This document shows positions 12,453 through 23,927 of a stretch of 64,000 bases of DNA, piece after piece. The stretch spans positions 1,344,001 to 1,408,000 of the forward strand of contig CAVXXK010000001.1 in assembly GCA_963765675.1 (NCBI GenBank), read 5' to 3'. The stretch is from an uncultured delta proteobacterium. GTDB taxonomy: Bacteria > Desulfobacterota > Binatia > Binatales > Binataceae. The notes below the pieces were generated by a model. That model was not told where the DNA came from and did no database searches. It saw nothing but the letters and a program-made list of their open reading frames with translations. Each line of letters starts with the position of its first letter. The stretch's first letter is position 1. A program made the position numbers and the translations under genes.

Positions 12453-13964
12453 ATGGGTAACCAGTACATCGAGGCGGCTCGGGTTTATCACGAGATTACC
12501 AAGCACTCGTATACCAGCGTGCGATCGTCGGGGACGTATCGGCTGGATTGGGACAATCGCCCCGCACCCTACAAGATTTATCCTGACGCCGGGGCGCTCG
12601 CGTTGCCGCGCGAGTTGGAGCTTTCCGCGATGCCTGCGCTTGCGGCGATCGCTGCCTCGGCAGAGGGAAGTGGCGCGTTGACGCTCGAAGCGCTGACGCG
12701 GTTTCTGTTCTGCACCGGAGGACTGACCCGGTCGAAGCAGGTCGGTGACGAGGATTACCATTTCCGCGCGGCCGCTTCGGCTGGAGCGCTCTATCCGACC
12801 GAGATGTATGTTGCCGCCGGCGAAGTAGGGGGGCTGGAGACGGCGCTGTACCATTTCTCGCCCGCCGATCTGAAACTGCGCGGACTGCGGCGCGGCGACT
12901 GGCGCGCGATGCTGTCGCGAGCAGCGGCAGGTCGCCCGTCGATCGCTCAGGCGCGCGCGGTGATTATCCTGACCTCGATATTTTGGCGCAGTGCGTGGAA
13001 GTATCATGCGCGCGCGTATCGGTACTGCTTCTGGGACGCGGGTACGATGCTCGCAAATCTGCTCGCGGCCGCGAACGCGGAGCAAATCGGCGCGGAGATC
13101 GTCACCGCGTTCGAGGATCCGGAGATCGAATCGCTCCTCGGGCTCGATCCGGATCGCGAAGGCGCCGTCGCTTTGATCGCGCTCGGCGGGGGCGGAGCCG
13201 TAGCGAGCGAGTCGCCCGCGACCGAGCCTTTCCCGTTCGAGTCGATTGCGCTTTCGACGCGCGAGGTCAGCTACGAGCCGATCGTGAAGTTTCATCGCGA
13301 GTCGCGCCTGGTGAGCCGCGCAGAGGTTTCTGAAATCGCCGATGCGACGGTGACTGCGGCCGAGCCTCGGCGCGATCTGATTCGATTTGATGCGGTTGCC
13401 GCCGACGACGCGACTGGACTTGGCGAGACGATCCTTCGCCGCGGCTCGACGCGCCAATTCGCGCAGGTTCCGATCCGCGGCGAGGAGCTGCAGGCGATTC
13501 TCGCGACGGCACGCACGCATCCGCGCGCCGACTTTCCCTCGCTCGTCGATACCTATCTGATCGTCAACGCGGTCGAGGGTCTCGCGCCGGGCGCTTATTT
13601 CTATGACCAGATCGGCGGCGGGTTCGAGCTCATTAAAGCAGGCGAGTTTCGCGGCGAGGCTGGATATCTATGCCTCGAGCAGCCGCTCGGAATGGATTGC
13701 TCCGCCCTGATTGTTTACATGGCGAATTTGGAGCGTGCGCTTGCAGCGCTCGGAAATCGCGGCTACCGCGACGCGCACCTCGAAGCCGGCATCGATGGGG
13801 GTCGCGCGTACCTGGGCGCCTATGCGCTCGGACGCGGCGCTACGGGGCTTACGTTCTACGACGACGACACGACCAAATTCTTTGAATCCCACGCGGCCGG
13901 AAAGAGTCCCATCCTGATGGTCGCGATCGGCGTGCCGCGGAGCCGCGCTGCTGACCAAGCGTGA
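12453..13964 (+). CDS. SagB/ThcOx-type dehydrogenase (tandem nitroreductase domains)
   Basis: RAAASAGALYP, WKYHARAYRY, second domain RRGSTRQF...GNRGYRDAHLEAG. Confidence 0.85.
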   Translation: MGNQYIEAARVYHEITKHSYTSVRSSGTYRLDWDNRPAPYKIYPDAGALALPRELELSAMPALAAIAASAEGSGALTLEALTRFLFCTGGLTRSKQVGDEDYHFRAAASAGALYPTEMYVAAGEVGGLETALYHFSPADLKLRGLRRGDWRAMLSRAAAGRPSIAQARAVIILTSIFWRSAWKYHARAYRYCFWDAGTMLANLLAAANAEQIGAEIVTAFEDPEIESLLGLDPDREGAVALIALGGGGAVASESPATEPFPFESIALSTREVSYEPIVKFHRESRLVSRAEVSEIADATVTAAEPRRDLIRFDAVAADDATGLGETILRRGSTRQFAQVPIRGEELQAILATARTHPRADFPSLVDTYLIVNAVEGLAPGAYFYDQIGGGFELIKAGEFRGEAGYLCLEQPLGMDCSALIVYMANLERALAALGNRGYRDAHLEAGIDGGRAYLGAYALGRGATGLTFYDDDTTKFFESHAAGKSPILMVAIGVPRSRAADQA

Positions 13965-14046: not shown

Positions 14047-14061
14047 CGGCATCTCTCTTGC
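14047..14061 (+). promoter_or_regulatory. sigma54 (-24/-12) promoter upstream of PII gene
   Basis: CGGCAT-CTCTC-TTGC with correct GG-N10-GC spacing, 60 bp upstream of ATG. Confidence 0.6.
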
Positions 14062-14120
14062 GTCTGCCCGATACGTGAGCGAGTGACGCGCCGGGTTGCA
14101 CCGCGCAAAGGACGCACTGG

Positions 14121-14459
14121 ATGAAGAAGGTTGAAGCGATCATCAAGCCGTTTACGATCGACGCGGTGAAGGCGGAACTCGAGCTTGCCGGCGTCACCGG
14201 AATTACCACCTACGAAGTCAGAGGCTTCGGCCGCCAGAAGGGACGCACCGAATTGTACCGCGGCTCGGAGTATATCGTCGATTTCAAGCCAAAGCTGAAA
14301 CTCGAAGTGATCGTGCGTGACGAGCAGACCGACGCGGTCGTCGATGCGATCCAGCGCAAGGCTTGGACCGGCAGAATCGGTGACGGCAAAATCTACGTGT
14401 CGGAAGTGTTCGAAGTAATCCGCATCCGCACCGACGAGCGCGGCAACGTCGCGGTCTGA
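14121..14459 (+). CDS. glnB: P-II family nitrogen regulatory protein (GlnB/GlnK)
   Basis: 112 aa; GFGRQKG, T-loop [21 protein letters not shown]; glnB versus glnK naming cannot be resolved. Confidence 0.95.
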
Positions 14460-14632
14460 ATCCTCTCTCCGGCGAAACTCAATCGAACCATTTATCAAAT
14501 CTCGAACCATCGTAGGTCCGAGGCTCCATCAATAATTCCAGATTGATGACTGCGCGGCGGGCGGTTGCTCATCGCGTGAGCATCGCCCGTGCAAAGTGCA
14601 ACAGATTTCTTTGCAAATCGATTGGCAAACGA

Positions 14633-14647
14633 TGGCACTCCTCTTGC
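14633..14647 (+). promoter_or_regulatory. sigma54 (-24/-12) promoter upstream of APC permease
   Basis: TGGCAC-TCCTC-TTGC matches the TGGCAC-N5-TTGC consensus. Confidence 0.75.
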
Positions 14648-14731
14648 CCTTAGGCCGAAGCGAACCCGCATTGGAATTTGAATCAGACGGGGAGCCGGCT
14701 CGAATCGGCGGGCCAAGCAGAAGGAGGAGAG

Positions 14732-16405
14732 ATGGCAGAGTCAAACGAAGCACCCAAGATGAAGGCGACACTTGGGCTGACCGGGGTGACGGTCAACGCT
14801 ATGGCGCTAATCGCGCCGGGCGCCTTCCTGTGGATAACGTTCGTCCAGCAGGCGGGTTACGCGTTTCCGTCGGGCATGGCGATGTGGTCGGGGATTTTTG
14901 TGGCGTTAATGCTGGCCTATGCGACGGCGGTTTCGTACTCGGAGCTGGCCAAGCTCTACCCGGGCGCGGGTAGCTCGTATCTGTTCGCGGAGCGGGCATT
15001 CCTGAACACGACGCACGCCTACAAGTTCGCACGGATCGCAAAATTCGTGACCGGATGGGCCTCGCATCTGTACTACTGGATGTATCCGGGGGTCATGGTC
15101 GCGACGATGGGAATCATGATCGGATACATCGTCGGCAACATCGCGCCGAACTCGATGAATGCGGGAATTCCGGGGCCCGTCTTCATGGCGCTGATCGCGG
15201 TAATTTTCGCTTTTGCGGTCGCGTGGATAGCCTTCCAGGGCGTCAACGGCTCGACGATGGTTAATATCGCGATCAACGGAATCCAGATCGTCGCGCTGCT
15301 GTTCTTCTCGGCGTTGGCGATCGCCTACCGCATGTCGCATCCTGCCGGCGCTGCGGGCCTTGCGCTCGACGCCAATGGCAACGTCATCCATGCGACGATC
15401 AGCTATGCATTCAGCGGCGACAATCCGGCGCATATGAACGCCCTGTCGGTTATTTTGCCGCATCACTTCTCATGGGTGATGCTGCAGGCGACGGTCGCGA
15501 TTCTGCTGTTGGTCGGCTTTGAGTCGGTGACCTCACTTGGCGAGGAAGCCAAGAACCCGACCAAGGATATTCCGCGCGGCGTCCTGCTCTCGCTGACCAT
15601 CCAGGGACTGTTCTGCTACCTGATCGAATATTTCGCCGCCAACTACTTCATGAGCAGCGCATACAGCCTCGCGGCCGCGAAGGGCTCCGCAGCTCCAATC
15701 GGTGACATGATGACGCTGGTCGGCAACGCGCTACTCGGCGGACACGGACAGGCGTTCATGCTGGTCGAAGCGCTGACCGTGTTCCTTGCGCTGATCGGCA
15801 CGACGCTTAGCTGCATCAATACAGGAGCCCGAGTTACTTATGCGATGGGTCGCGATGAGGAGGTGCCGGAGCATTTCGGATTCCTGCACGGCAAGAACCT
15901 GACCCCGCATCGCGCGATCTGGGCGCTGGCGATGATCTCAGCGGTCCTCGGCGCATACGCGGCGTTGTTCTACTTCGCCGGTGGCTCCGCGCCCGACGAC
16001 AAAACCATCGCGACGCTGCCGCACAACATCTGGTACGCGATCGGGATGAGCTCGAACGCAAGCCTCTCGGCGCTGCCCAACGGGTTGTTGCTGGTGACGC
16101 TGACCTCGAACTTCGGGACCTTCCTGCTCTACGGGCTGACGAACATCATATGTATCGTGGCCTTCCGCGAGCACGAAACTTTCCATGGCTTCAAGCACGT
16201 GGTTATCCCGGTATTCGGCGCGGTCGCGAACTTCTCATGCCTTGCCTTCTACATCATCGGACCCCTGGAAGGCTTGGGCAGCGTGAAGGAGCCGTTAATC
16301 GCGGTCGCGATTTCCGCAATCTGGGGAATCTACGGAGCGATATATTTCGTCCGCAACTCGAAGAAGAAGGGGAAATCAACAATATTGGTCGCCAAGCCGG
16401 CGTAG
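14732..16405 (+). CDS. APC family amino acid/polyamine permease
   Basis: About 12 TM segments, ELAKLYPGAGSSY, VGFESVTSLGEEAKNPTKDIPR; ATG after AAGGAGGAG. Confidence 0.92.
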   Translation: MAESNEAPKMKATLGLTGVTVNAMALIAPGAFLWITFVQQAGYAFPSGMAMWSGIFVALMLAYATAVSYSELAKLYPGAGSSYLFAERAFLNTTHAYKFARIAKFVTGWASHLYYWMYPGVMVATMGIMIGYIVGNIAPNSMNAGIPGPVFMALIAVIFAFAVAWIAFQGVNGSTMVNIAINGIQIVALLFFSALAIAYRMSHPAGAAGLALDANGNVIHATISYAFSGDNPAHMNALSVILPHHFSWVMLQATVAILLLVGFESVTSLGEEAKNPTKDIPRGVLLSLTIQGLFCYLIEYFAANYFMSSAYSLAAAKGSAAPIGDMMTLVGNALLGGHGQAFMLVEALTVFLALIGTTLSCINTGARVTYAMGRDEEVPEHFGFLHGKNLTPHRAIWALAMISAVLGAYAALFYFAGGSAPDDKTIATLPHNIWYAIGMSSNASLSALPNGLLLVTLTSNFGTFLLYGLTNIICIVAFREHETFHGFKHVVIPVFGAVANFSCLAFYIIGPLEGLGSVKEPLIAVAISAIWGIYGAIYFVRNSKKKGKSTILVAKPA

Positions 16406-16428
16406 CGAGCCACGCCGGTCGTAACCCC

Positions 16429-16462
16429 GGGGGCGGATGGTGCTTCGGCGCCGTCCGCCCCC
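16429..16462 (+). other. Strong intergenic hairpin with UUCG tetraloop (no U-tract)
   Basis: GGGGGCGGATGGTGC-TTCG-GCGCCGTCCGCCCCC. Confidence 0.6.
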
Positions 16463-16496
16463 AATCCCATTTGCGAAAGTCGTATAGTATCGGTCC

Positions 16497-17345
16497 GTGA
16501 CTGAAGCCGAGCACAAGCATCCGCCTGCCGACCCCGCGCCCGAGACGGATATTTTTGATCTGGCGCTGCTGTCCGACGTCGGAACCAATCGTCCCGACAA
16601 CGAAGACTCCTGCGGCCATCTGATCGACGCGCCGGACGCCGCGGTCTTCGCGGTCGCCGACGGAATCGGCGGCTATGACGGCGGCGAAGTCGCAAGCTCT
16701 ATGGCGATCGAGCTGACCTTGCAGGCGTGGCGTGAAAGTCCCGCCTCGTGGGGCGCGGCCAAACGCCTGGCGCGCGCCGTGCAGTTCGCCAATATCGAAA
16801 TTCACAATCGTGCGCTCGCGGTGCCGGAGCTCCGCAGGATGGGCACCACGCTGACTGCGGTCGCGATCGACAAGGGGATGCTCGCGGCCGCGCACGTCGG
16901 AGATTGCCGGCTCTATCTCGCGCGCCGACATACGATTTCGCAGCTCACCAAGGATCACACGATGGTCGCGGAGAAGGTTCGGATGGGCCTGCTCACCGCT
17001 GAGCGCGCGCGCAATCATCCAGAGCGCTCGATGCTGGTGCGGAGTATCGGGCAGGAGCTGATCGTTTCGGTCGATCGAATCTCGATACCGCTGGTGCAGG
17101 GCGATCGCCTGATTCTATGCAGCGACGGATTGCACAACGTGCTGCGCGACAGCGAGCTCGAGCACATGACACGCGATCTCGATGCGGCCGCAGCGTGCCG
17201 CAACCTGGTCGAGACCGCGAACCAACGCGGAACGGCCGACAATCTGACCGTCGCGGTGTTCATGATGCTCGCCGATACGGGCCTCGCACCTACCTCACCT
17301 GGATGGCGCGCCAGGCTTGGCCGCCTGTTCGTCAGAGGCGCGTGA
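16497..17345 (+). CDS. PP2C/PPM family Ser/Thr protein phosphatase (Stp1/PrpC-like)
   Basis: DVGTNRPDNED, VADGIGG, AHVGDCR, LCSDGL, DN motifs. Confidence 0.93.
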   Translation: MTEAEHKHPPADPAPETDIFDLALLSDVGTNRPDNEDSCGHLIDAPDAAVFAVADGIGGYDGGEVASSMAIELTLQAWRESPASWGAAKRLARAVQFANIEIHNRALAVPELRRMGTTLTAVAIDKGMLAAAHVGDCRLYLARRHTISQLTKDHTMVAEKVRMGLLTAERARNHPERSMLVRSIGQELIVSVDRISIPLVQGDRLILCSDGLHNVLRDSELEHMTRDLDAAAACRNLVETANQRGTADNLTVAVFMMLADTGLAPTSPGWRARLGRLFVRGA

Positions 17346-17437
17346 GCGATTGAATCGCAGCGGACGGCGGCTGGTTTGGGACGTCATGGCATGGTAACTT
17401 CCGCGCCCAGACCCTATCTCTGCCAGGCATAGATTCC

Positions 17438-18454
17438 ATGCGCGAGGTCAGCGTCGGCGAAACCCTCGATCAGTACAAGCTTACCGAGGTGATCGCGCGC
17501 AGCGGGATGGCGTCGATCTTCAAAGGGATCGACATTACCAACGGACAGACCGTCGCGATCAAGGTTCCCTATCTTCAGTTCGAAAGCGACGTAATTTTCT
17601 ACAGCCGCTTCCAGCGCGAAGAGGAAGTAGTCCGCCGGCTTGACCATCGCAACGTCATCAAGATCATGACGCCCCGGCACAAAAGCCGGATGTATATCGC
17701 GATGGAGTTCGTGGACGGCACCTCGCTACGCGAGTTGATGCGCAACGAACGGCCGATGGCGACCGCGAAAGCTCTTGGCTACGCGATCCAGATTTGCGAA
17801 GCGCTGGTCTACATGCACGGCGAGAAAGTGGTGCATCGCGATTTGAAGCCGGAAAACATGCTCGTGACCGGCGACGGCACCGTAAAGATCATGGATTTCG
17901 GGATCGCGCTGGATGAATCAGCCCGGCGGCTCACGTGGTCGGGGTTGTCGTCGACCATCGGCACGCCCGACTATATGGCGCCGGAGCAGGTAAGCGGCCG
18001 GCGCGGCGATGCGCGCACGGATATCTACGCGTTGGGCGTGATCTTGTATGAGATGCTGACCGGGAATCTGCCGTTTTCGGGTCCGAATGTTTACAACGTG
18101 ATGCGCGCGAAGACCAACGAGGATCCGCACCCACCGTCCGAGTTCGTAAAGGATTTCGATCCCAAGCTGGAAGATATCATCCTGCACGCGATCGAGACCG
18201 CGCCCAAAAACCGTTACGCGAGCGCCGCCGAGATGCTTGCCGATTTGCGCGATCCGTCGCGGGTGGTTCCGCACGGACGCGCCGCGCATCTGAAGCCGCG
18301 CAGCCTGCGCATGCAGAAATTCCGGCGTACGGCGGGTTTCGTGCTGTTTTTCGCGTCGCTCATCGGATTCTTCGTGTTCCTGATCTGGATCGCCAACCGC
18401 TATCCCGCGTCGCAGGTCGCGCCGCGTAAATCCTTCCGAGGGGAAATGAGATGA
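17438..18454 (+). CDS. Hanks-type Ser/Thr protein kinase with C-terminal TM anchor
   Basis: VAIK, HRDLKPEN, DFG, GTPDYMAPE, DIYALG; one TM helix near C-terminus and a short tail. Confidence 0.95.
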   Translation: MREVSVGETLDQYKLTEVIARSGMASIFKGIDITNGQTVAIKVPYLQFESDVIFYSRFQREEEVVRRLDHRNVIKIMTPRHKSRMYIAMEFVDGTSLRELMRNERPMATAKALGYAIQICEALVYMHGEKVVHRDLKPENMLVTGDGTVKIMDFGIALDESARRLTWSGLSSTIGTPDYMAPEQVSGRRGDARTDIYALGVILYEMLTGNLPFSGPNVYNVMRAKTNEDPHPPSEFVKDFDPKLEDIILHAIETAPKNRYASAAEMLADLRDPSRVVPHGRAAHLKPRSLRMQKFRRTAGFVLFFASLIGFFVFLIWIANRYPASQVAPRKSFRGEMR

Positions 18455-19893
18455 CACGCCGCCGCTTAAGTTTCACTCTTTGCGCCCTCGCGATCGCCGC
18501 CGCAGCGCCGATGCTGTTAGCTGCCAGCCGCGCGCACGCCGAGTCCGTATCGCCCGCGATCCCGTTCGATCAATCGCTCAACCTTGCGTGGGTGCTGATC
18601 GCCGGGTTTCTCGTGATGTTCATGCAGGTCGGCTTTGCGATGGTCGAAACCGGTTTCACGCGATCGAAAAACGCGGTCAACACAATGGCGATGAACCTGA
18701 TCATCTATCCGATCTGCGTGATCGGATTCTGGCTCACCGGCTATGGGTTCATGATGGGCGGCGTACATGAGTGGCCCTCGCTCGGTTCGGCCCAGATTGG
18801 GCATCACGAACTCGCGCTCACGATCGGCAGCCATGCATGGGGGATCCTGGGCTTCAGCAAATTCTCTCTCGCCAGCGTCAGCCACGATCCCACGAGCCTC
18901 GCGATGTTTTTGTTCGCGGTCGTGTTCATGGACACCGCCGCGACTATCCCGACCGGCGCGATGGCCGAGCGGTGGAAGTTCTCCGCGTTTTTCATTTACG
19001 GATTTTTCATCTCGATGTTCCTGTATCCGCTATATGGCAACTGGGTGTGGGGCGGAGGATGGCTCTCGCAGCTCGGCGTCAACCTGGGCCTGGGACACGG
19101 CCACGTCGATTTCGCCGGCTCATCGGTGGTTCACATGACGGGCGGAGTAGTCGCGCTGGCCGGAGTGATCGTGCTCGGGCCGCGCATCGGAAGATTTCGG
19201 CGCGACGGCGCTATCGGCGCGCTTCCCGGACACAACCTGCCGATGGCGGTAGTGGGAACGCTGATCCTGGCCTTCGGATGGTTCGGGTTCAACGCCGGCT
19301 CAACGCTGGCCGCGACCGACTCGCGGATCGGCGTGATCGCGGTGAACACGATGCTCTCGTCGTCGTCGGGAGCGCTCGCCGCGCTCATCTACCTGTGGCA
19401 TCGCTACAAAAAGCCGGACATCGCGATGGCGTGCAACGGCCTGCTCGGCGGATTGGTCGCGATCACGGCGCCGTGCGCATTCGTTACTCCGTCGGCGGCG
19501 GTATTGATCGGGATCATCGCGGGACTCGTGGTGGTCGCGGCGGTGATCGAGCTCGAGCGGCGCTTCAGGCTCGACGATCCGGTCGGAGCGATCGCGGTGC
19601 ACGGCGCGTGCGGATTATGGGGATCGCTCGCGCTCGGAATCTTTGCCGACGGCAGCTACGGCGAGGGATGGAACGCGGTGGCGGGTCCCGTGCGGGGCCT
19701 GCTCTACGGCGACCCCGGGCAATTCGTTGCTCAGCTTATCGGTGTCACCGTGAACATCGTCGTGATATTCGGACTAGCATGGATCTTCTTCACCATAATC
19801 GAGCGAACGATGGGAAATAGGGTGTTGGCGGAAGTGGAGTGGTCGGGGCTCGATGCGCTTGAAATGGGCAGCGAAGCATATCCGCACGTCTGA
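18451..19893 (+). CDS. amt: Ammonium transporter (Amt family)
   Basis: FMQVGFAMVETG, DFAGSSVVH, FGWFGFNAGS, DDPVGAIAVH (twin His intact), GLD..E.G..AY tail; ATGA overlap with kinase. Confidence 0.95.
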   Translation: MTRRRLSFTLCALAIAAAAPMLLAASRAHAESVSPAIPFDQSLNLAWVLIAGFLVMFMQVGFAMVETGFTRSKNAVNTMAMNLIIYPICVIGFWLTGYGFMMGGVHEWPSLGSAQIGHHELALTIGSHAWGILGFSKFSLASVSHDPTSLAMFLFAVVFMDTAATIPTGAMAERWKFSAFFIYGFFISMFLYPLYGNWVWGGGWLSQLGVNLGLGHGHVDFAGSSVVHMTGGVVALAGVIVLGPRIGRFRRDGAIGALPGHNLPMAVVGTLILAFGWFGFNAGSTLAATDSRIGVIAVNTMLSSSSGALAALIYLWHRYKKPDIAMACNGLLGGLVAITAPCAFVTPSAAVLIGIIAGLVVVAAVIELERRFRLDDPVGAIAVHGACGLWGSLALGIFADGSYGEGWNAVAGPVRGLLYGDPGQFVAQLIGVTVNIVVIFGLAWIFFTIIERTMGNRVLAEVEWSGLDALEMGSEAYPHV

Positions 19894-20779
19894 GCGGACG
19901 ATCGTCCGGATCGCGGCCGGATTGGCGATCGCACTGTGGATCGTGAGTTCGGCGGCTGCCGCGCACGCACAGGTCGGTGCGCGCGACTTTCCGGACACAC
20001 TGGTCACGCAGGATCCAGATCCCTCTAACGAACTGGATCTGCTGCCTGGAATGGCGAGCAGCAATGGCCAGAACAGTTTCTCGTTCTCCTTCGAGTTCGA
20101 GAAAAAGATCAGCGAGAACACCAGCATCCAGCTCTCCGAGGCGATCAACGATCCTCTGAGACGAAGGCTGCGCTCCAGCACCGGTCTATCGAACCTCCAG
20201 ATTCTGCCGAAGTGGGCATTCTTCGCGTCCGACGAGCATGAATTGAGACTCGCGATCGGTTTGCAGATCGATGCCCCGACTGGCGAAATCTCGGCCGGCG
20301 CCGACGGCCATACGCGCGGCGGACCTCTGCTGATGCTCGCAAAAGGAATGGGCGATCTGAGCTCGAAAGGTCCGCTGTTTTATCTGCGCCCGTTCGCGAT
20401 TCAGGCCGACGCCGGATATGTGCCGACCTGGAATGGCTACGAGAGCGATCTCGGGGAGGCGGACGTGGCGCTGTCGTACTCGATGCCATACCTGGCGGCG
20501 TCGGAAGATTCCGTTTTGCGCGTACCGATCATTTCGCGGCTGGTGCCGATCGTCGAGTTCAACTATCAGCAAATCCTCGACGGACGCGCTAACAAGACGC
20601 CGCCAGAATTCCTGATCACGCCGGAGCTCGGCTACCAGTCCGATGCGTATCAGATCACGGTCGGCGGACAGTTCGGGCTAAATGGATACGGTCAAAGCCA
20701 GGAAAAGTCGGCGATAGTCGGAATGCTAAGTCTCTACCTGACCCATTTCATCCCCGAGCTGCGCTGGACCCCGTTCTGA
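19853..20779 (+). CDS. Secreted protein, putative outer-membrane beta-barrel
   Basis: Signal peptide ending AHA, alternating beta-strand pattern, terminal Phe; start uncertain (overlaps amt). Confidence 0.6.
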   Translation: MRLKWAAKHIRTSERTIVRIAAGLAIALWIVSSAAAAHAQVGARDFPDTLVTQDPDPSNELDLLPGMASSNGQNSFSFSFEFEKKISENTSIQLSEAINDPLRRRLRSSTGLSNLQILPKWAFFASDEHELRLAIGLQIDAPTGEISAGADGHTRGGPLLMLAKGMGDLSSKGPLFYLRPFAIQADAGYVPTWNGYESDLGEADVALSYSMPYLAASEDSVLRVPIISRLVPIVEFNYQQILDGRANKTPPEFLITPELGYQSDAYQITVGGQFGLNGYGQSQEKSAIVGMLSLYLTHFIPELRWTPF

Positions 20780-21710: not shown

Positions 21711-23927
21711 ATGAAGGGTCGGGATTTGTGCGTTATCGCATTCGTATTCGTTTGTGCGGCATGTGGTGGAAGTTCAGGAGGGAGCAGCGGCGGACCGAAA
21801 CCGCAGCCGATCAACCAGACAGTTCAAGTCCCCGGCCTGATGACGACCGGCCGATTCACCAAGGCGGTAACGCTCACTTCCGGTGACGTGCTCGAGGTGG
21901 CAGGCTTCGGCTCGCTTCAGGCCGTCATTCTCGCGTCCAGCGAGATCTATCATCCGCAGACGGACACCTTTTCCGTGGTCTCGAATCAATTGCCAATCCC
22001 GGCCACTCGGCTGTGCCTCGCGGCGTTAAACGACGGCACCGCGCTTGAGATCGGCGGCCAGGGCAGCAATGGCAACGCCCTGCTGCAGACCGAGGTTTAC
22101 AATCCCGCGTCCAACAGCTTCGCGCCAACCACTGGCGCAATGAACGATGCCCGCTACGGATGCACCGCCACGACGCTTTCAGATGGAACCGTGCTGATCG
22201 CAGGAGGCAACGACAGTTCCGGCGACGGCATCGACACTGCCGAGATTTACGATCCTGCCTCGGGAACTTTCTCGTACACGGGCGATATGCTCTCGCCGCG
22301 CTCGTTCCATTCCGCGGTGCTGTTGGCCAGCGGCGAGGTTTTGCTCGCGGGCGGCCTGAATGGGACTACCCTGCTCTCCAGCGCCGAGCTTTACGATCCC
22401 ACGAGCAAAACGTTTACCGCGACCGCGGGTCCACTCAACACCGCCCGCGAAGATTTTGGGGCGGTTCTCCTGAGCGACGGGCGCGTGCTTCTGGCCGGAG
22501 GGGCGGGCGCGGCGGGAAGCCTCGACACGGCGGAGCTGTACGACCCCAACGCTTCAACCTTCAGCTTCACCGCAAACAATATGAGTGACGCGAGAAGAAC
22601 GCCGTCGGTCGCGGCGCTTTCCAATGGAAATGCGATCGTTGGGGGCGGAAGCAGCAGCTTTCCGAATCAGACCCCGATCGCCAGTTGCGATTTGTTCGAC
22701 GCAGCCAACAATACTTTCTCGCCAACCGCTCCGCTCCATATTGGGCGGATGGAGGCGGCCGCCGTGGTTTTGCCCGGCGGCTCGCCGCTAATTCTTGGCG
22801 GGATTGACTTTCAGGGAACCTCCGGCGGGAACTACGAACCTAGCGGAGAAATCTACGATCCGACCGCTGCAACTTTCACCGTGACAGGCGGCCTCAACTC
22901 GCTTCGGATCGCGTACGCGTCGGCGCGGCTCGACAATGGCGAAGTCCTCATCGCGGGCGGCGCCACCCAGAGCGGGCCGCTCGCGACGGCTGAGGTGTTT
23001 GATCCCTCGACGGGGTATTTCACACCCACCGCGAACAATCTGGACGTAGCCCGCGTATCGCTGAACGCGGTCACGCTTCCCAGCGGCAAGGTGTTGATCG
23101 ACGGAGGCAGCACGGGCACCACCGCCGAGCTCTTCGATCCGGCGACCATGAGCTTTGCGCTCACCGGCTCGATGACCGCGGCACGCTCCGTGGCGACGGC
23201 GACACTGCTTAACGATGGCACGGTTCTGATCGCTGGCGGACTCGATCTGGGCGGCGACTCGCTCGATACGGCGGAGATCTATAATCCGAAAACCGCAACC
23301 TTCACCGCGACCAGCGGGGTGATGACGACGCCGCGCGCACTCCACACTGCGACATTGCTCAAGAATGGTGAAGTGCTGCTCGCAGGCGGCAGCACCAGCT
23401 CCGATTTTTCCGACGTACTCGATACCGCGGAAATCTACAATCCCAAGACTCAGACGTTTACCGCAACTGCCGGAACGATGACCTCGCTGCGTGCGAGCGC
23501 GACCGCAAATCTGCTCAAAAACGGCCAGGTTCTGATTGCCGGCGGAGCGATCGCCAACGGCAGCTCGCTCGCCAGCGCCGAGTTGTTCGATCCGGCGACC
23601 GGCCAGTTCACGGCGACTTCGGGATCGATGAGCAATTCGCGCGTCTTCCAGTCCTCGGTCAGTTTGCCGAATGGAGAAGTAATGATCGCGGGCGGAAGTA
23701 TCGGGACATTCAGCGGAGTGATCTCATACACATCGGTGGCTACCGTGGATTTTTACGATCCATCATCGCAACAGTTCGTTCCAGCGGTACCGATGATCTC
23801 GCCACGCGATTTCTTTGTCGCCACTTTGCTGACCTCGGGAAAAGTATTGCTTCCCGCAGGCCGGGTAACCAGCCCGACGGGTGTCGGTACCGCGGCGCTC
23901 GAGACCGCCGAGATTTACACGCCGTAA
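21711..23927 (+). CDS. Kelch-repeat beta-propeller lipoprotein
   Basis: Lipobox-like CAAC followed by GS linker; 14 repeats ending E-[IL]-[YF]-[DN]-P with VLIAGG cores. Confidence 0.85.
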   Translation: MKGRDLCVIAFVFVCAACGGSSGGSSGGPKPQPINQTVQVPGLMTTGRFTKAVTLTSGDVLEVAGFGSLQAVILASSEIYHPQTDTFSVVSNQLPIPATRLCLAALNDGTALEIGGQGSNGNALLQTEVYNPASNSFAPTTGAMNDARYGCTATTLSDGTVLIAGGNDSSGDGIDTAEIYDPASGTFSYTGDMLSPRSFHSAVLLASGEVLLAGGLNGTTLLSSAELYDPTSKTFTATAGPLNTAREDFGAVLLSDGRVLLAGGAGAAGSLDTAELYDPNASTFSFTANNMSDARRTPSVAALSNGNAIVGGGSSSFPNQTPIASCDLFDAANNTFSPTAPLHIGRMEAAAVVLPGGSPLILGGIDFQGTSGGNYEPSGEIYDPTAATFTVTGGLNSLRIAYASARLDNGEVLIAGGATQSGPLATAEVFDPSTGYFTPTANNLDVARVSLNAVTLPSGKVLIDGGSTGTTAELFDPATMSFALTGSMTAARSVATATLLNDGTVLIAGGLDLGGDSLDTAEIYNPKTATFTATSGVMTTPRALHTATLLKNGEVLLAGGSTSSDFSDVLDTAEIYNPKTQTFTATAGTMTSLRASATANLLKNGQVLIAGGAIANGSSLASAELFDPATGQFTATSGSMSNSRVFQSSVSLPNGEVMIAGGSIGTFSGVISYTSVATVDFYDPSSQQFVPAVPMISPRDFFVATLLTSGKVLLPAGRVTSPTGVGTAALETAEIYTP

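Follow-up and report, generated by a model that had tools for sequence, protein, structure and literature searches.

A kinase and a phosphatase encoded beside an ammonium transporter in Binataceae: a candidate phosphorylation switch at the transporter tail

A gene cluster was analysed in a 64,000-nucleotide stretch of DNA, referred to below as the window, from an uncultured Binataceae bacterium (GCA_963765675.1, contig CAVXXK010000001.1, positions 1,344,001 to 1,408,000, forward strand). In this cluster the gene of an ammonium transporter (Amt) directly follows those of a PP2C phosphatase and a Hanks-type Ser/Thr kinase. Comparison with related genomes points to a switch in which the coupled kinase and PP2C would replace GlnK and control Amt by reversible phosphorylation of its C-terminal region, at the tail hinge; we place this reading a little short of an even chance. 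It suggests that bacteria, like plants and yeast, may be able to switch ammonium uptake through phosphorylation.

The genome (G000) comprises 4.5 Mb in 16 contigs and is 95.6% complete. Binataceae are an uncultured, abundant soil lineage, and the host of the window is a soil bacterium. A first-pass annotation of the window had described six co-oriented genes, two sigma54-type promoters and a kinase stop codon overlapping the amt start (ATGA), and had proposed that the kinase and phosphatase switch PII, Amt or the permease. All six genes were found in place on the + strand, encoding PII, an APC permease, PP2C, a Hanks kinase, Amt and a putative outer-membrane protein; both sigma54-type sites are present (14048–14061 and 14633–14647), and the ATGA overlap lies at 18451–18454. 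Among the three proposed targets the comparison favours the C-terminal region of Amt, while the permease gave no signal and PII does not belong to the conserved core. Features of the core are as follows (aa, amino acids).

14732..16405, +, APC-superfamily permease, 557 aa (AA_permease 42 bits, a weak match)
16497..17345, +, PP2C/PPM Ser/Thr phosphatase, 282 aa (PP2C_2 66.5 bits)
17438..18454, +, Hanks-type Ser/Thr kinase, 338 aa (Pkinase 174 bits)
18451..19893, +, Amt of the AMT1/receptor-related clade (Ammonium_transp 378 bits; TIGR00836 389 bits)
19843..19845, +, codon of Ser465, candidate phosphosite inside ExxGxD (Ser/Thr pattern)
19870..19872, +, codon of Ser474, candidate phosphosite (Ser/Thr pattern)

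Conservation of the core and the kinase–amt junction

Relatives of the permease were collected from one genome per species (132 relatives), and the best 80 were kept. These come from named Binataceae or from unclassified delta-/proteobacterial metagenome-assembled genomes, and their permeases are 77–97% identical. The 69 copies followed by 5 kb or more of sequence were taken as evaluable. PP2C, kinase and Amt follow in that order in 48 of the 69; 18 copies are lone paralogs in unrelated contexts, and 3 loci are partial. The first-pass annotation had offered conservation of the cluster as a test of its proposal. The synteny survey upholds this for the permease–PP2C–kinase–Amt core and not for the ends of the cluster, since PII is found upstream in 9/47 core loci and a homolog of the putative outer-membrane gene downstream in 11/48. 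A second Amt gene lies upstream in 8/44.

Flanking genes were compared in the 29 core loci readable for 3 kb on both sides. Neither the SagB gene nor the enoyl-CoA hydratase gene that border the window cluster was found in 13, both in 8, SagB only in 5 and enoyl-CoA hydratase only in 3. The core outlasts its flanks; judged by this comparison, the cluster forms a functional unit that is conserved and has neighbours related to nitrogen.

The junction between kinase and amt was measured in 46 loci with both open reading frames (ORFs). The two genes overlap in 36/46, in 32 of them by 4 nucleotides (nt) and in the other 4 by 1 nt, across kinase identities of 66–96%; gaps of 32–117 nt, with uncertain starts, were found in 9, and the last locus (L016) reads as a fusion. 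On this survey the junction is the most constant feature of the cluster and appears to be its tightest link. The fusion ORF of L016 (L016:10878-13328, 816 aa) was rejected as a kinase–Amt fusion protein. A short run at its junction is longer by one C than in L013, which most likely reflects an assembly error, and its topology would be wrong because the signal peptide of Amt would come after the kinase anchor. The last residues of the kinase (S-[FY]-R-G-[EQ]) are conserved and coincide with a purine-rich stretch before the overlapping amt start. This stretch was read as the amt ribosome-binding site, so the conservation of these residues may act at the nucleotide level.

Candidate phosphosites in the Amt tail

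A scan of the 480 positions of Amt for Ser or Thr in at least 85% of 28 kinase-linked orthologs and in no more than 25% of 18 unlinked ones selected four (96, 149, 465 and 474). Positions 96 and 149 would lie toward the periplasmic side according to a reading of the topology; 465 and 474 belong to the cytoplasmic tail. Across 48 Binataceae Amts, position 465 is Ser in 36 and Thr in 12, with nothing else, and is encoded by seven codons from both serine families and threonine (TCG, TCC, TCA, AGC, ACC, ACG, ACT). Position 474 is Ser in 47 and Thr in 1. The other 22 tail positions within 455–478 are invariant or nearly so in 19 cases, and 459, 460 and 469 vary. Unlinked orthologs have Glu at 465 and Val at 474, each in 17/18.

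Residue 465 directly precedes Gly466 in E463-W-S-G-L-D468, which is the ExxGxD motif. This motif is described as a universally conserved element of Amt tails, and mutation of its Gly inactivates AmtB and AtAMT1;1 (passages of PMC4852598 and PMC7279009). According to the same passages, the region rearranges upon phosphomimicry in Mep2, and plant AMT phosphosites lie close to it. A hydroxyl that is retained through Ser/Thr and codon-family switches, at a position where relatives are acidic, would be the expected look of a phospho-switch.

The kinase and the phosphatase

The kinase matches Pkinase (PF00069) with 174.4 bits against a cut-off of 31.7, which places it in the Hanks-type family. K42 (VAIK), H133-R-D135, D153-F-G155 and A181-P-E183 (APE) are invariant across 28 kinase orthologs, and the Gly-rich loop is degenerate (ARSGMAS) yet conserved. 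As read from the sequence, the protein consists of the kinase domain and a single C-terminal hydrophobic span (about residues 300–322) followed by about 16 residues. Assignment to the Stk1/PknB PASTA kinases (NF033483) was rejected, with 292 bits against a cut-off of 450 and only model positions 7–268 matched. A family search with the kinase returned near-identical Binataceae proteins only and was uninformative on other phyla.

PP2C scores above cut-off with PF13672 (66.5 bits, cut-off 24) and PF00481 (49.9 bits, cut-off 20.3) and has no extra domain. Its score with the Stp1/IreP equivalog NF033484 is just below cut-off (224.5 against 230 bits). The closest solved structures are 5iti and 2j82 (125 bits), which we take to be cyanobacterial tPphA, and Stp1 (121 bits).

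Elsewhere the genome encodes one more PP2C and few kinase matches, namely a cluster of three beside that PP2C (C1:972963-977531) and one on contig C6. The C1 cluster is presumably the housekeeping pair. With so few others in the genome, and with a fusion of the two into one 600-aa protein in another family (G286, below), the PP2C and kinase of the window would form a dedicated pair.

A second lineage with the kinase, and unlinked Amt orthologs

Orthologs were also sought in 401 genomes assigned to the phylum of the window. Kinase matches of at least 70% identity were confined to the window's family (3/4 other genomes); matches of 47–49% were found in G286 and G229, which belong to another family, and the rest were at or below about 41%. 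In G286 the gene order is BBP2 porin, permease (frame broken), a 600-aa PP2C–kinase fusion with the same C-terminal anchor, YnfA-like, Amt, PII, Amt, PII, Amt, amidotransferase, PII and GlnD. G229 is similar, with the fused PP2C–kinase gene split by a frame break. In both genomes the cassette sits between a BBP2 porin gene and a resident Amt gene. The cassette-adjacent Amt shares 74% identity with the unlinked Amt of the congeneric G199, where the porin directly precedes Amt without the cassette, and 58% with the window Amt.

A maximum-likelihood tree of 49 Amts groups the 27 Binataceae proteins in a single clade (support 100/100) and places the Amts of G286 and G229 among unlinked orthologs (100/99 within 99/99). 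Forcing all kinase-linked Amts into one clade was 23 log-likelihood units worse (approximately unbiased test, p-AU 0.044); this result is marginal, and the group was named after a quick tree had been seen. These placements are read as the cassette having been put, on two separate occasions, beside the same kind of Amt.

An Amt ortholog (50–80% identity) is present in 36 of the 401 genomes, and 6 of those 36 have a kinase ortholog. In 18 regions from other genomes with the Amt ortholog, no kinase ortholog, PP2C or APC relative was found nearby; one of them (L119) has a 29%-identical kinase-like match about 4.4 kb from Amt. A PII gene adjoins Amt in most of these 18 regions, so the usual amt–glnK pair is the common state, and from this comparison Binataceae appear to have the cassette in place of the adjacent PII. 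The PII beside the receptor-related Amt in G286 (L091:11586-11924) and G229 (L100–L102) has an unusual T-loop, FYRAAKND, which lacks Tyr51 and thus makes uridylylation at the usual site impossible.

These data also bear on the proposal that the pair is a general housekeeping Ser/Thr kinase and PP2C whose place beside amt has no functional meaning. Both enzymes are generic, with no specific equivalog above cut-off, and the synteny is partly shared ancestry because close relatives also keep the SagB and enoyl-CoA hydratase flanks. However, the stop/start overlap is retained in 36/46 loci, the core persists where flanks differ, the cassette stands beside the same Amt clade in the second lineage, and a separate kinase/PP2C cluster is available elsewhere in the genome. 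We give this proposal very little credence.

Amt and the ammonium receptors

Amt scores 378 bits with PF00909 and 389 bits with TIGR00836 (cut-off 343) and belongs to the Amt/Mep/Rh family. In a HMMER alignment to Sd-Amt1 it is identical at the pore residues Trp139, Ser225, Phe98, Phe221, His169 and His323 of that protein. Tail residues R457, E463, G466, D468 and Y477 are invariant. The second Amt of the genome is AmtB-type and stands alone, without an adjoining PII.

The resemblance to receptors raises another possibility, in which Amt is an ammonium transceptor that controls a tethered kinase, forming a split receptor comparable to Ks-Amt5, while the kinase acts on other targets and PP2C resets them. 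Among solved structures, Amt matches Ks-Amt5 (232 bits) and Sd-Amt1 (219 bits) best, ahead of the transporters Af-Amt1 (167 bits) and AmtB (about 150 bits). In most of the 120 longer homologs listed, including P0070, P0073 and P0082, Amt is fused to signalling domains (such as histidine kinase, GGDEF/EAL or chemoreceptor). The kinase itself lacks a sensor domain, and Amt resembles the receptors in its Phe62/Glu66 pair and in the exit constriction at Asn329.

The published signature of ammonium receptors (AmR) decides against a canonical receptor. It is given as Q-x6-E-x15-N-x2-D-[F/T]-x54-60-T-x2-[S/T] with a switching Lys before the Asn (passages of PMC11152129). The window Amt shares Gln59, Phe62, Glu66, Asn82, Thr165, Thr168 and Asn329 with receptor Amts, as do all 45 other clade members examined. 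The switching Lys is replaced by Met81 and the N2-ligand Asp by Ile/Val85 (Lys44 and Asp48 of Sd-Amt1) in 28/28 linked and 18/18 unlinked clade members, whereas both Lys and Asp are present in 10/10 fused receptors checked. By the published signature, the window Amt is best described as a relative of the receptor Amts and not a member. In addition, its orthologs elsewhere stand in ordinary amt–glnK pairs, the cluster encodes no conserved downstream target, and P0070 looks frameshifted past the start of its kinase domain. We consider a transceptor unlikely.

P0070 (955 aa) is a receptor-signature Amt fused to a C-terminal Ser/Thr protein-kinase domain, beyond the start of which it looks frameshifted; P0073 and P0082 are receptor-signature Amts fused to PAS-SpoIIE phosphatase domains. 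Neither type of transducer is among those mentioned in the available portions of PMC11152129.

PII and the accessory features

The remaining features of the cluster are as follows.

14048..14061, +, sigma54-type site GGCAT-N5-TTGC, 5' of the PII gene
14121..14459, +, PII, GlnK-like paralog, accessory member (Pfam P-II 101 bits)
14633..14647, +, sigma54 consensus TGGCAC-N5-TTGC, exact match, 85 nt 5' of the permease start
16429..16462, +, GC-rich 15-bp hairpin immediately 3' of the permease stop (folding energy)
19853..20779, +, putative outer-membrane channel, 308 aa, variable accessory (overlaps the amt end by 41 nt)

The window PII is a canonical PII protein (PF00543, 101 bits) with T-loop YRGSEY. 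R47 is invariant in nine aligned sequences, and Tyr51 is present in the cluster-linked PIIs. With the E. coli equivalog models it scores 141.7 bits, under the cut-off of 202. All 11 cluster-linked PIIs have Ser49, Arg42 and Lys56, and their T-loop region ends in [IV]DFKP. Housekeeping PIIs of Binataceae have Ala49 and read GHTELYRGAEYVVDFLP. The genome also encodes GlnD (744 bits), a stand-alone GlnB-like PII with Ala49 and a weak PII-like match.

An amtB–glnK operon was rejected for the window, where no PII lies directly beside amt: the window PII is four genes upstream, and a PII gene 3' of Amt was found in none of the compared Binataceae loci. Neither Amt of G000 has an adjoining PII. As an obligatory partner PII was also rejected, given its presence in 9/47 core loci and three core genomes that hold only the Ala49 form.

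The pair might instead be the kinase and phosphatase of PII Ser49, as in the cyanobacterial PII-P/PphA system, with the upstream PII as substrate. Ser49 is the cyanobacterial PII phosphosite, and its kinase is described as still unidentified in passages of PMC4285133 and PMC11863333. Every linked PII has Ser49 in RGSEY and a sigma54-type site of its own (11/11 in both cases), whereas housekeeping PIIs from those genomes carry Ala49, and the best solved relatives of PP2C are 5iti and 2j82. Against this, the core occurs mostly without an upstream PII; G174, G204 and G317 have the core and a single PII match of the Ala49 form; GlnD is encoded and Tyr51 retained; and the PP2C match to 5iti and 2j82 exceeds that to Stp1 by 4 bits. 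Ser49 is also conserved in PIIs that are not phosphorylated (passages of PMC4285133). PII as the substrate of the pair is therefore improbable, and PII would be at most an added substrate in some genera. In L009 a remnant of a Ser49-type PII gene with an internal stop lies 5' of the permease (L009:2147-2287), which suggests that the accessory PII was lost recently in that genome.

Permease and outer-membrane candidate

The permease scores below every NCBIfam cut-off, and its best solved relatives are cationic amino-acid transporters (E 2e-6). It was considered as the target of the pair, with the linkage to Amt reflecting shared nitrogen regulation only. The permease gene is the upstream neighbour of PP2C–kinase in both lineages, and in L040 an extra amino-acid permease sits between PP2C and kinase. 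However, a Ser/Thr scan of 57 linked permeases against 18 lone paralogs (at least 85% and at most 25%) found no position. The cytoplasmic tails are very short, and a hairpin separates the permease gene from PP2C. In about 10 loci the two genes are 2.3–2.6 kb apart, and the one such stretch that was examined, in L035, contains the gene of a BBP2 (OmpL-like) porin. The permease frame is broken in G286. We regard the permease as a quite improbable target.

The first-pass label of an outer-membrane protein is putative. The 308-aa ORF is present, with a signal-peptide-like N-terminus and a C-terminal Phe; the label draws on these two traits, on a weak family resemblance and on language-model neighbours, all of them weak points. 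No Pfam match was obtained at E<=0.001, and the match to Phenol_MetA_deg (PF13557) is weak (E 0.0097, 16.4 bits, cut-off 22). Its language-model (atlas) neighbours are named 'Transporter family protein', and PF13557 occurs in 39% of the members of one cluster.

Promoters and transcription

Matches to the sigma54 type number 3 in the window against 2.4 expected, which by number alone is chance level; the sites are credible because of their position and conservation. The site at 14633–14647 is the sole exact match to TGGCAC-N5-TTGC within the 64 kb. GGCA[CT]-N5-TTGC was found up to 400 nt 5' of the permease in 39/79 related loci, and a sigma54-type motif up to 250 nt 5' of PII in 11/11 loci that have PII. 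The genome encodes RpoN (DNA-binding domain 214 bits). With consensus, a gene 3' of it and RpoN in the genome, the 14633–14647 site is a predicted sigma54-dependent promoter. A stricter genome-wide scan returned 14 sites; the window's own site falls outside these because the base following TTGC is C there.

The region 16403–16499 (97 nt) around the hairpin folds with a minimum free energy of -45.7 kcal/mol (z -3.5), and 0/200 shuffles fold equally well. Across 44 loci the median minimum free energy of the permease–PP2C intergenic region is -49.7 (median length 127 nt), and the main stem sequences differ among the 7 of those loci that were compared. The hairpin is a possible terminator, attenuator or mRNA stabiliser.

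A sigma54 motif 5' of the kinase gene was found in 0/52 loci, and a third site before the kinase (TGGCATGGTAACTTCC at about 17388) was rejected as it is not conserved as a sigma54 motif. A TG[GT]TAAC[TG]T element is conserved about 45–50 nt 5' of the kinase start (window about 17388–17403; loci L001–L014, from several genera), and may be an extended -10 promoter for kinase–amt. PP2C, kinase and Amt may be transcribed by read-through from the sigma54 promoter or from a promoter of their own.

Neighbouring genes

A 503-aa SagB-family (nitroreductase-fold) dehydrogenase is encoded directly 5' of the cluster and co-oriented with it (12453–13964, +). A SagB homolog lies within 3 kb 5' of the permease in 17/42 core loci. 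A 738-aa protein of many Kelch repeats is encoded at 21711–23927 (+), just 3' of the enoyl-CoA hydratase gene, and is retained in the closest relatives.

Proposed mechanism

From the observed anatomy, conservation, coupling and Ser/Thr pattern we infer a substrate, a site, a direction and a nitrogen regulation of kinase–amt. The cluster would be a nitrogen-scavenging uptake cluster of Binataceae, in which Amt is under post-translational control of its own membrane-anchored kinase and PP2C and not of an adjacent GlnK. Translational coupling of the kinase gene to amt would let both proteins be made together at the membrane. The kinase would then phosphorylate Ser/Thr465 in the cytoplasmic C-terminal region, with Ser474 possibly a second site, and PP2C would reverse this. 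The ExxGxD hinge docks the tail onto the intracellular loops by which Amt/Mep/AMT channels open or close; a charge at 465 would therefore be expected to switch transport. Since GlnK-linked orthologs have Glu at 465 and a phospho-Ser/Thr would restore the charge, phosphorylation would more likely be activating, although this direction is guesswork. Co-located accessories would be the permease and the porin-like gene, joined in some genera by the Ser49-type PII; sigma54-type sites precede at least the PII and permease genes.

Several points weigh against this mechanism. Domain searches and sequence reading found no sensor domain in kinase or PP2C, which leaves the source of the signal unexplained. 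The strong hairpin after the permease and the missing sigma54 site before the kinase leave nitrogen regulation of PP2C–kinase–Amt unproven. The Ser/Thr pattern is confined to one clade and thus counts as a single evolutionary event, and that clade stands on a long stem (1.08 changes per site) along which many residues changed. The second kinase-bearing lineage retains Glu465, Val474 and a GlnK beside Amt, so the proposed site is not general to the cassette; the frame breaks there, in the permease (G286) and the kinase (G229), may be decay or assembly error. A post hoc and weak point in favour of the mechanism is that the WSGL of the Amt tail is also present in the kinase activation segment: a shared 4-mer between the two 30-residue segments arose in 272/20000 tail shuffles, and over the whole proteins the match is not significant (1726/2000 shuffles).

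A wider version holds that kinase and PP2C displaced GlnK as the gate of Amt, writing and erasing a phosphate inside ExxGxD, and that the same kinase also phosphorylates the Ser49 PII where present. This is a long shot. If true, the cluster would be a bacterial operon-encoded counterpart of CIPK23–AMT1 and Npr1–Mep2 and would give the first kinase family tied to PII Ser49.

Comparison with known systems

The first-pass annotation knew of no characterised system with this layout, and full-text literature searches likewise turned up no account of a Ser/Thr kinase linked to amt in bacteria or of such a layout. In the main text of a 2023 review of prokaryotic Amts (PMC10433425), searched for kinases, phosphatases and phosphorylation, the sole kinase treated is the histidine kinase of Ks-Amt5. 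A text search of the Binatota genome paper (PMC8262859) for ammonium transporter, amt, kinase, P-II, permease and nitrogen found none of these words.

With the plant CBL1–CIPK23/ACTPK1–AMT1 system (Thr460), the cluster shares an AMT1/receptor-related Amt and a candidate site in the conserved tail, beside the ExxGxD Gly that corresponds to G456 of AtAMT1;1 (passages of PMC7279009 and PMC4852598). In plants a Ser/Thr kinase acts on the transporter itself, as is proposed here. Unlike in plants, the host is a bacterium, the kinase is a membrane-anchored Hanks kinase of the same cluster whose gene overlaps amt, and a dedicated PP2C is co-encoded. The candidate residue lies one position before the Gly, and plant Thr460 four after it.

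In yeast Npr1–Mep2 (Ser457) a kinase switches an Amt/Mep protein through its cytoplasmic tail under nitrogen limitation, with effects on ExxGxD; the same is proposed here. Npr1 also controls an APC-superfamily amino-acid permease, which parallels the permease gene of the cluster. In Mep2 the site belongs to an autoinhibitory extension absent from bacterial proteins (passages of PMC4852598), whereas the window Amt has a tail of normal bacterial length with the candidate site inside ExxGxD.

Likeness to the amtB–glnK pair is seen in the orthologs of the window Amt in other families, which mostly have an adjoining PII, in the GlnD of the genome, and in Arg47 and Tyr51 of the linked PII. In that system the T-loop of GlnK plugs the channel, and GlnD uridylylates Tyr51. 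In Binataceae, by contrast, PII, if present, lies upstream of the permease and has Ser49, and the kinase and phosphatase occupy the spot beside amt.

Among solved structures, the closest to the window Amt are the receptor Amts Ks-Amt5, which has a histidine kinase, and Sd-Amt1, which has a diguanylate cyclase; they likewise couple a signalling enzyme to an Amt module. They differ in their Lys/Asp pair, which is Met/Ile here; the kinase of the cluster is a separate protein of the Hanks type, and the orthologs of its Amt are ordinary amt–glnK genes. The cyanobacterial PII-P/PphA system shares with the cluster Ser49 in RGSEY and a PP2C and Ser/Thr kinase, known here from genes encoded nearby; it differs in that PII is found in a minority of our loci, and in that GlnD and Tyr51 are present.

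To our knowledge, the known control of bacterial ammonium transporters runs through GlnK, and only plants and fungi are known to phosphorylate a transporter tail. The cluster is a concrete candidate for tail phosphorylation in bacteria, with a dedicated kinase and phosphatase where glnK normally sits and a hinge Glu replaced by Ser/Thr. For the PII Ser49 kinase, which has long been sought, it supplies a candidate enzyme family. It also reveals the wiring of a receptor-related Amt clade in a soil lineage that is abundant and uncultured.

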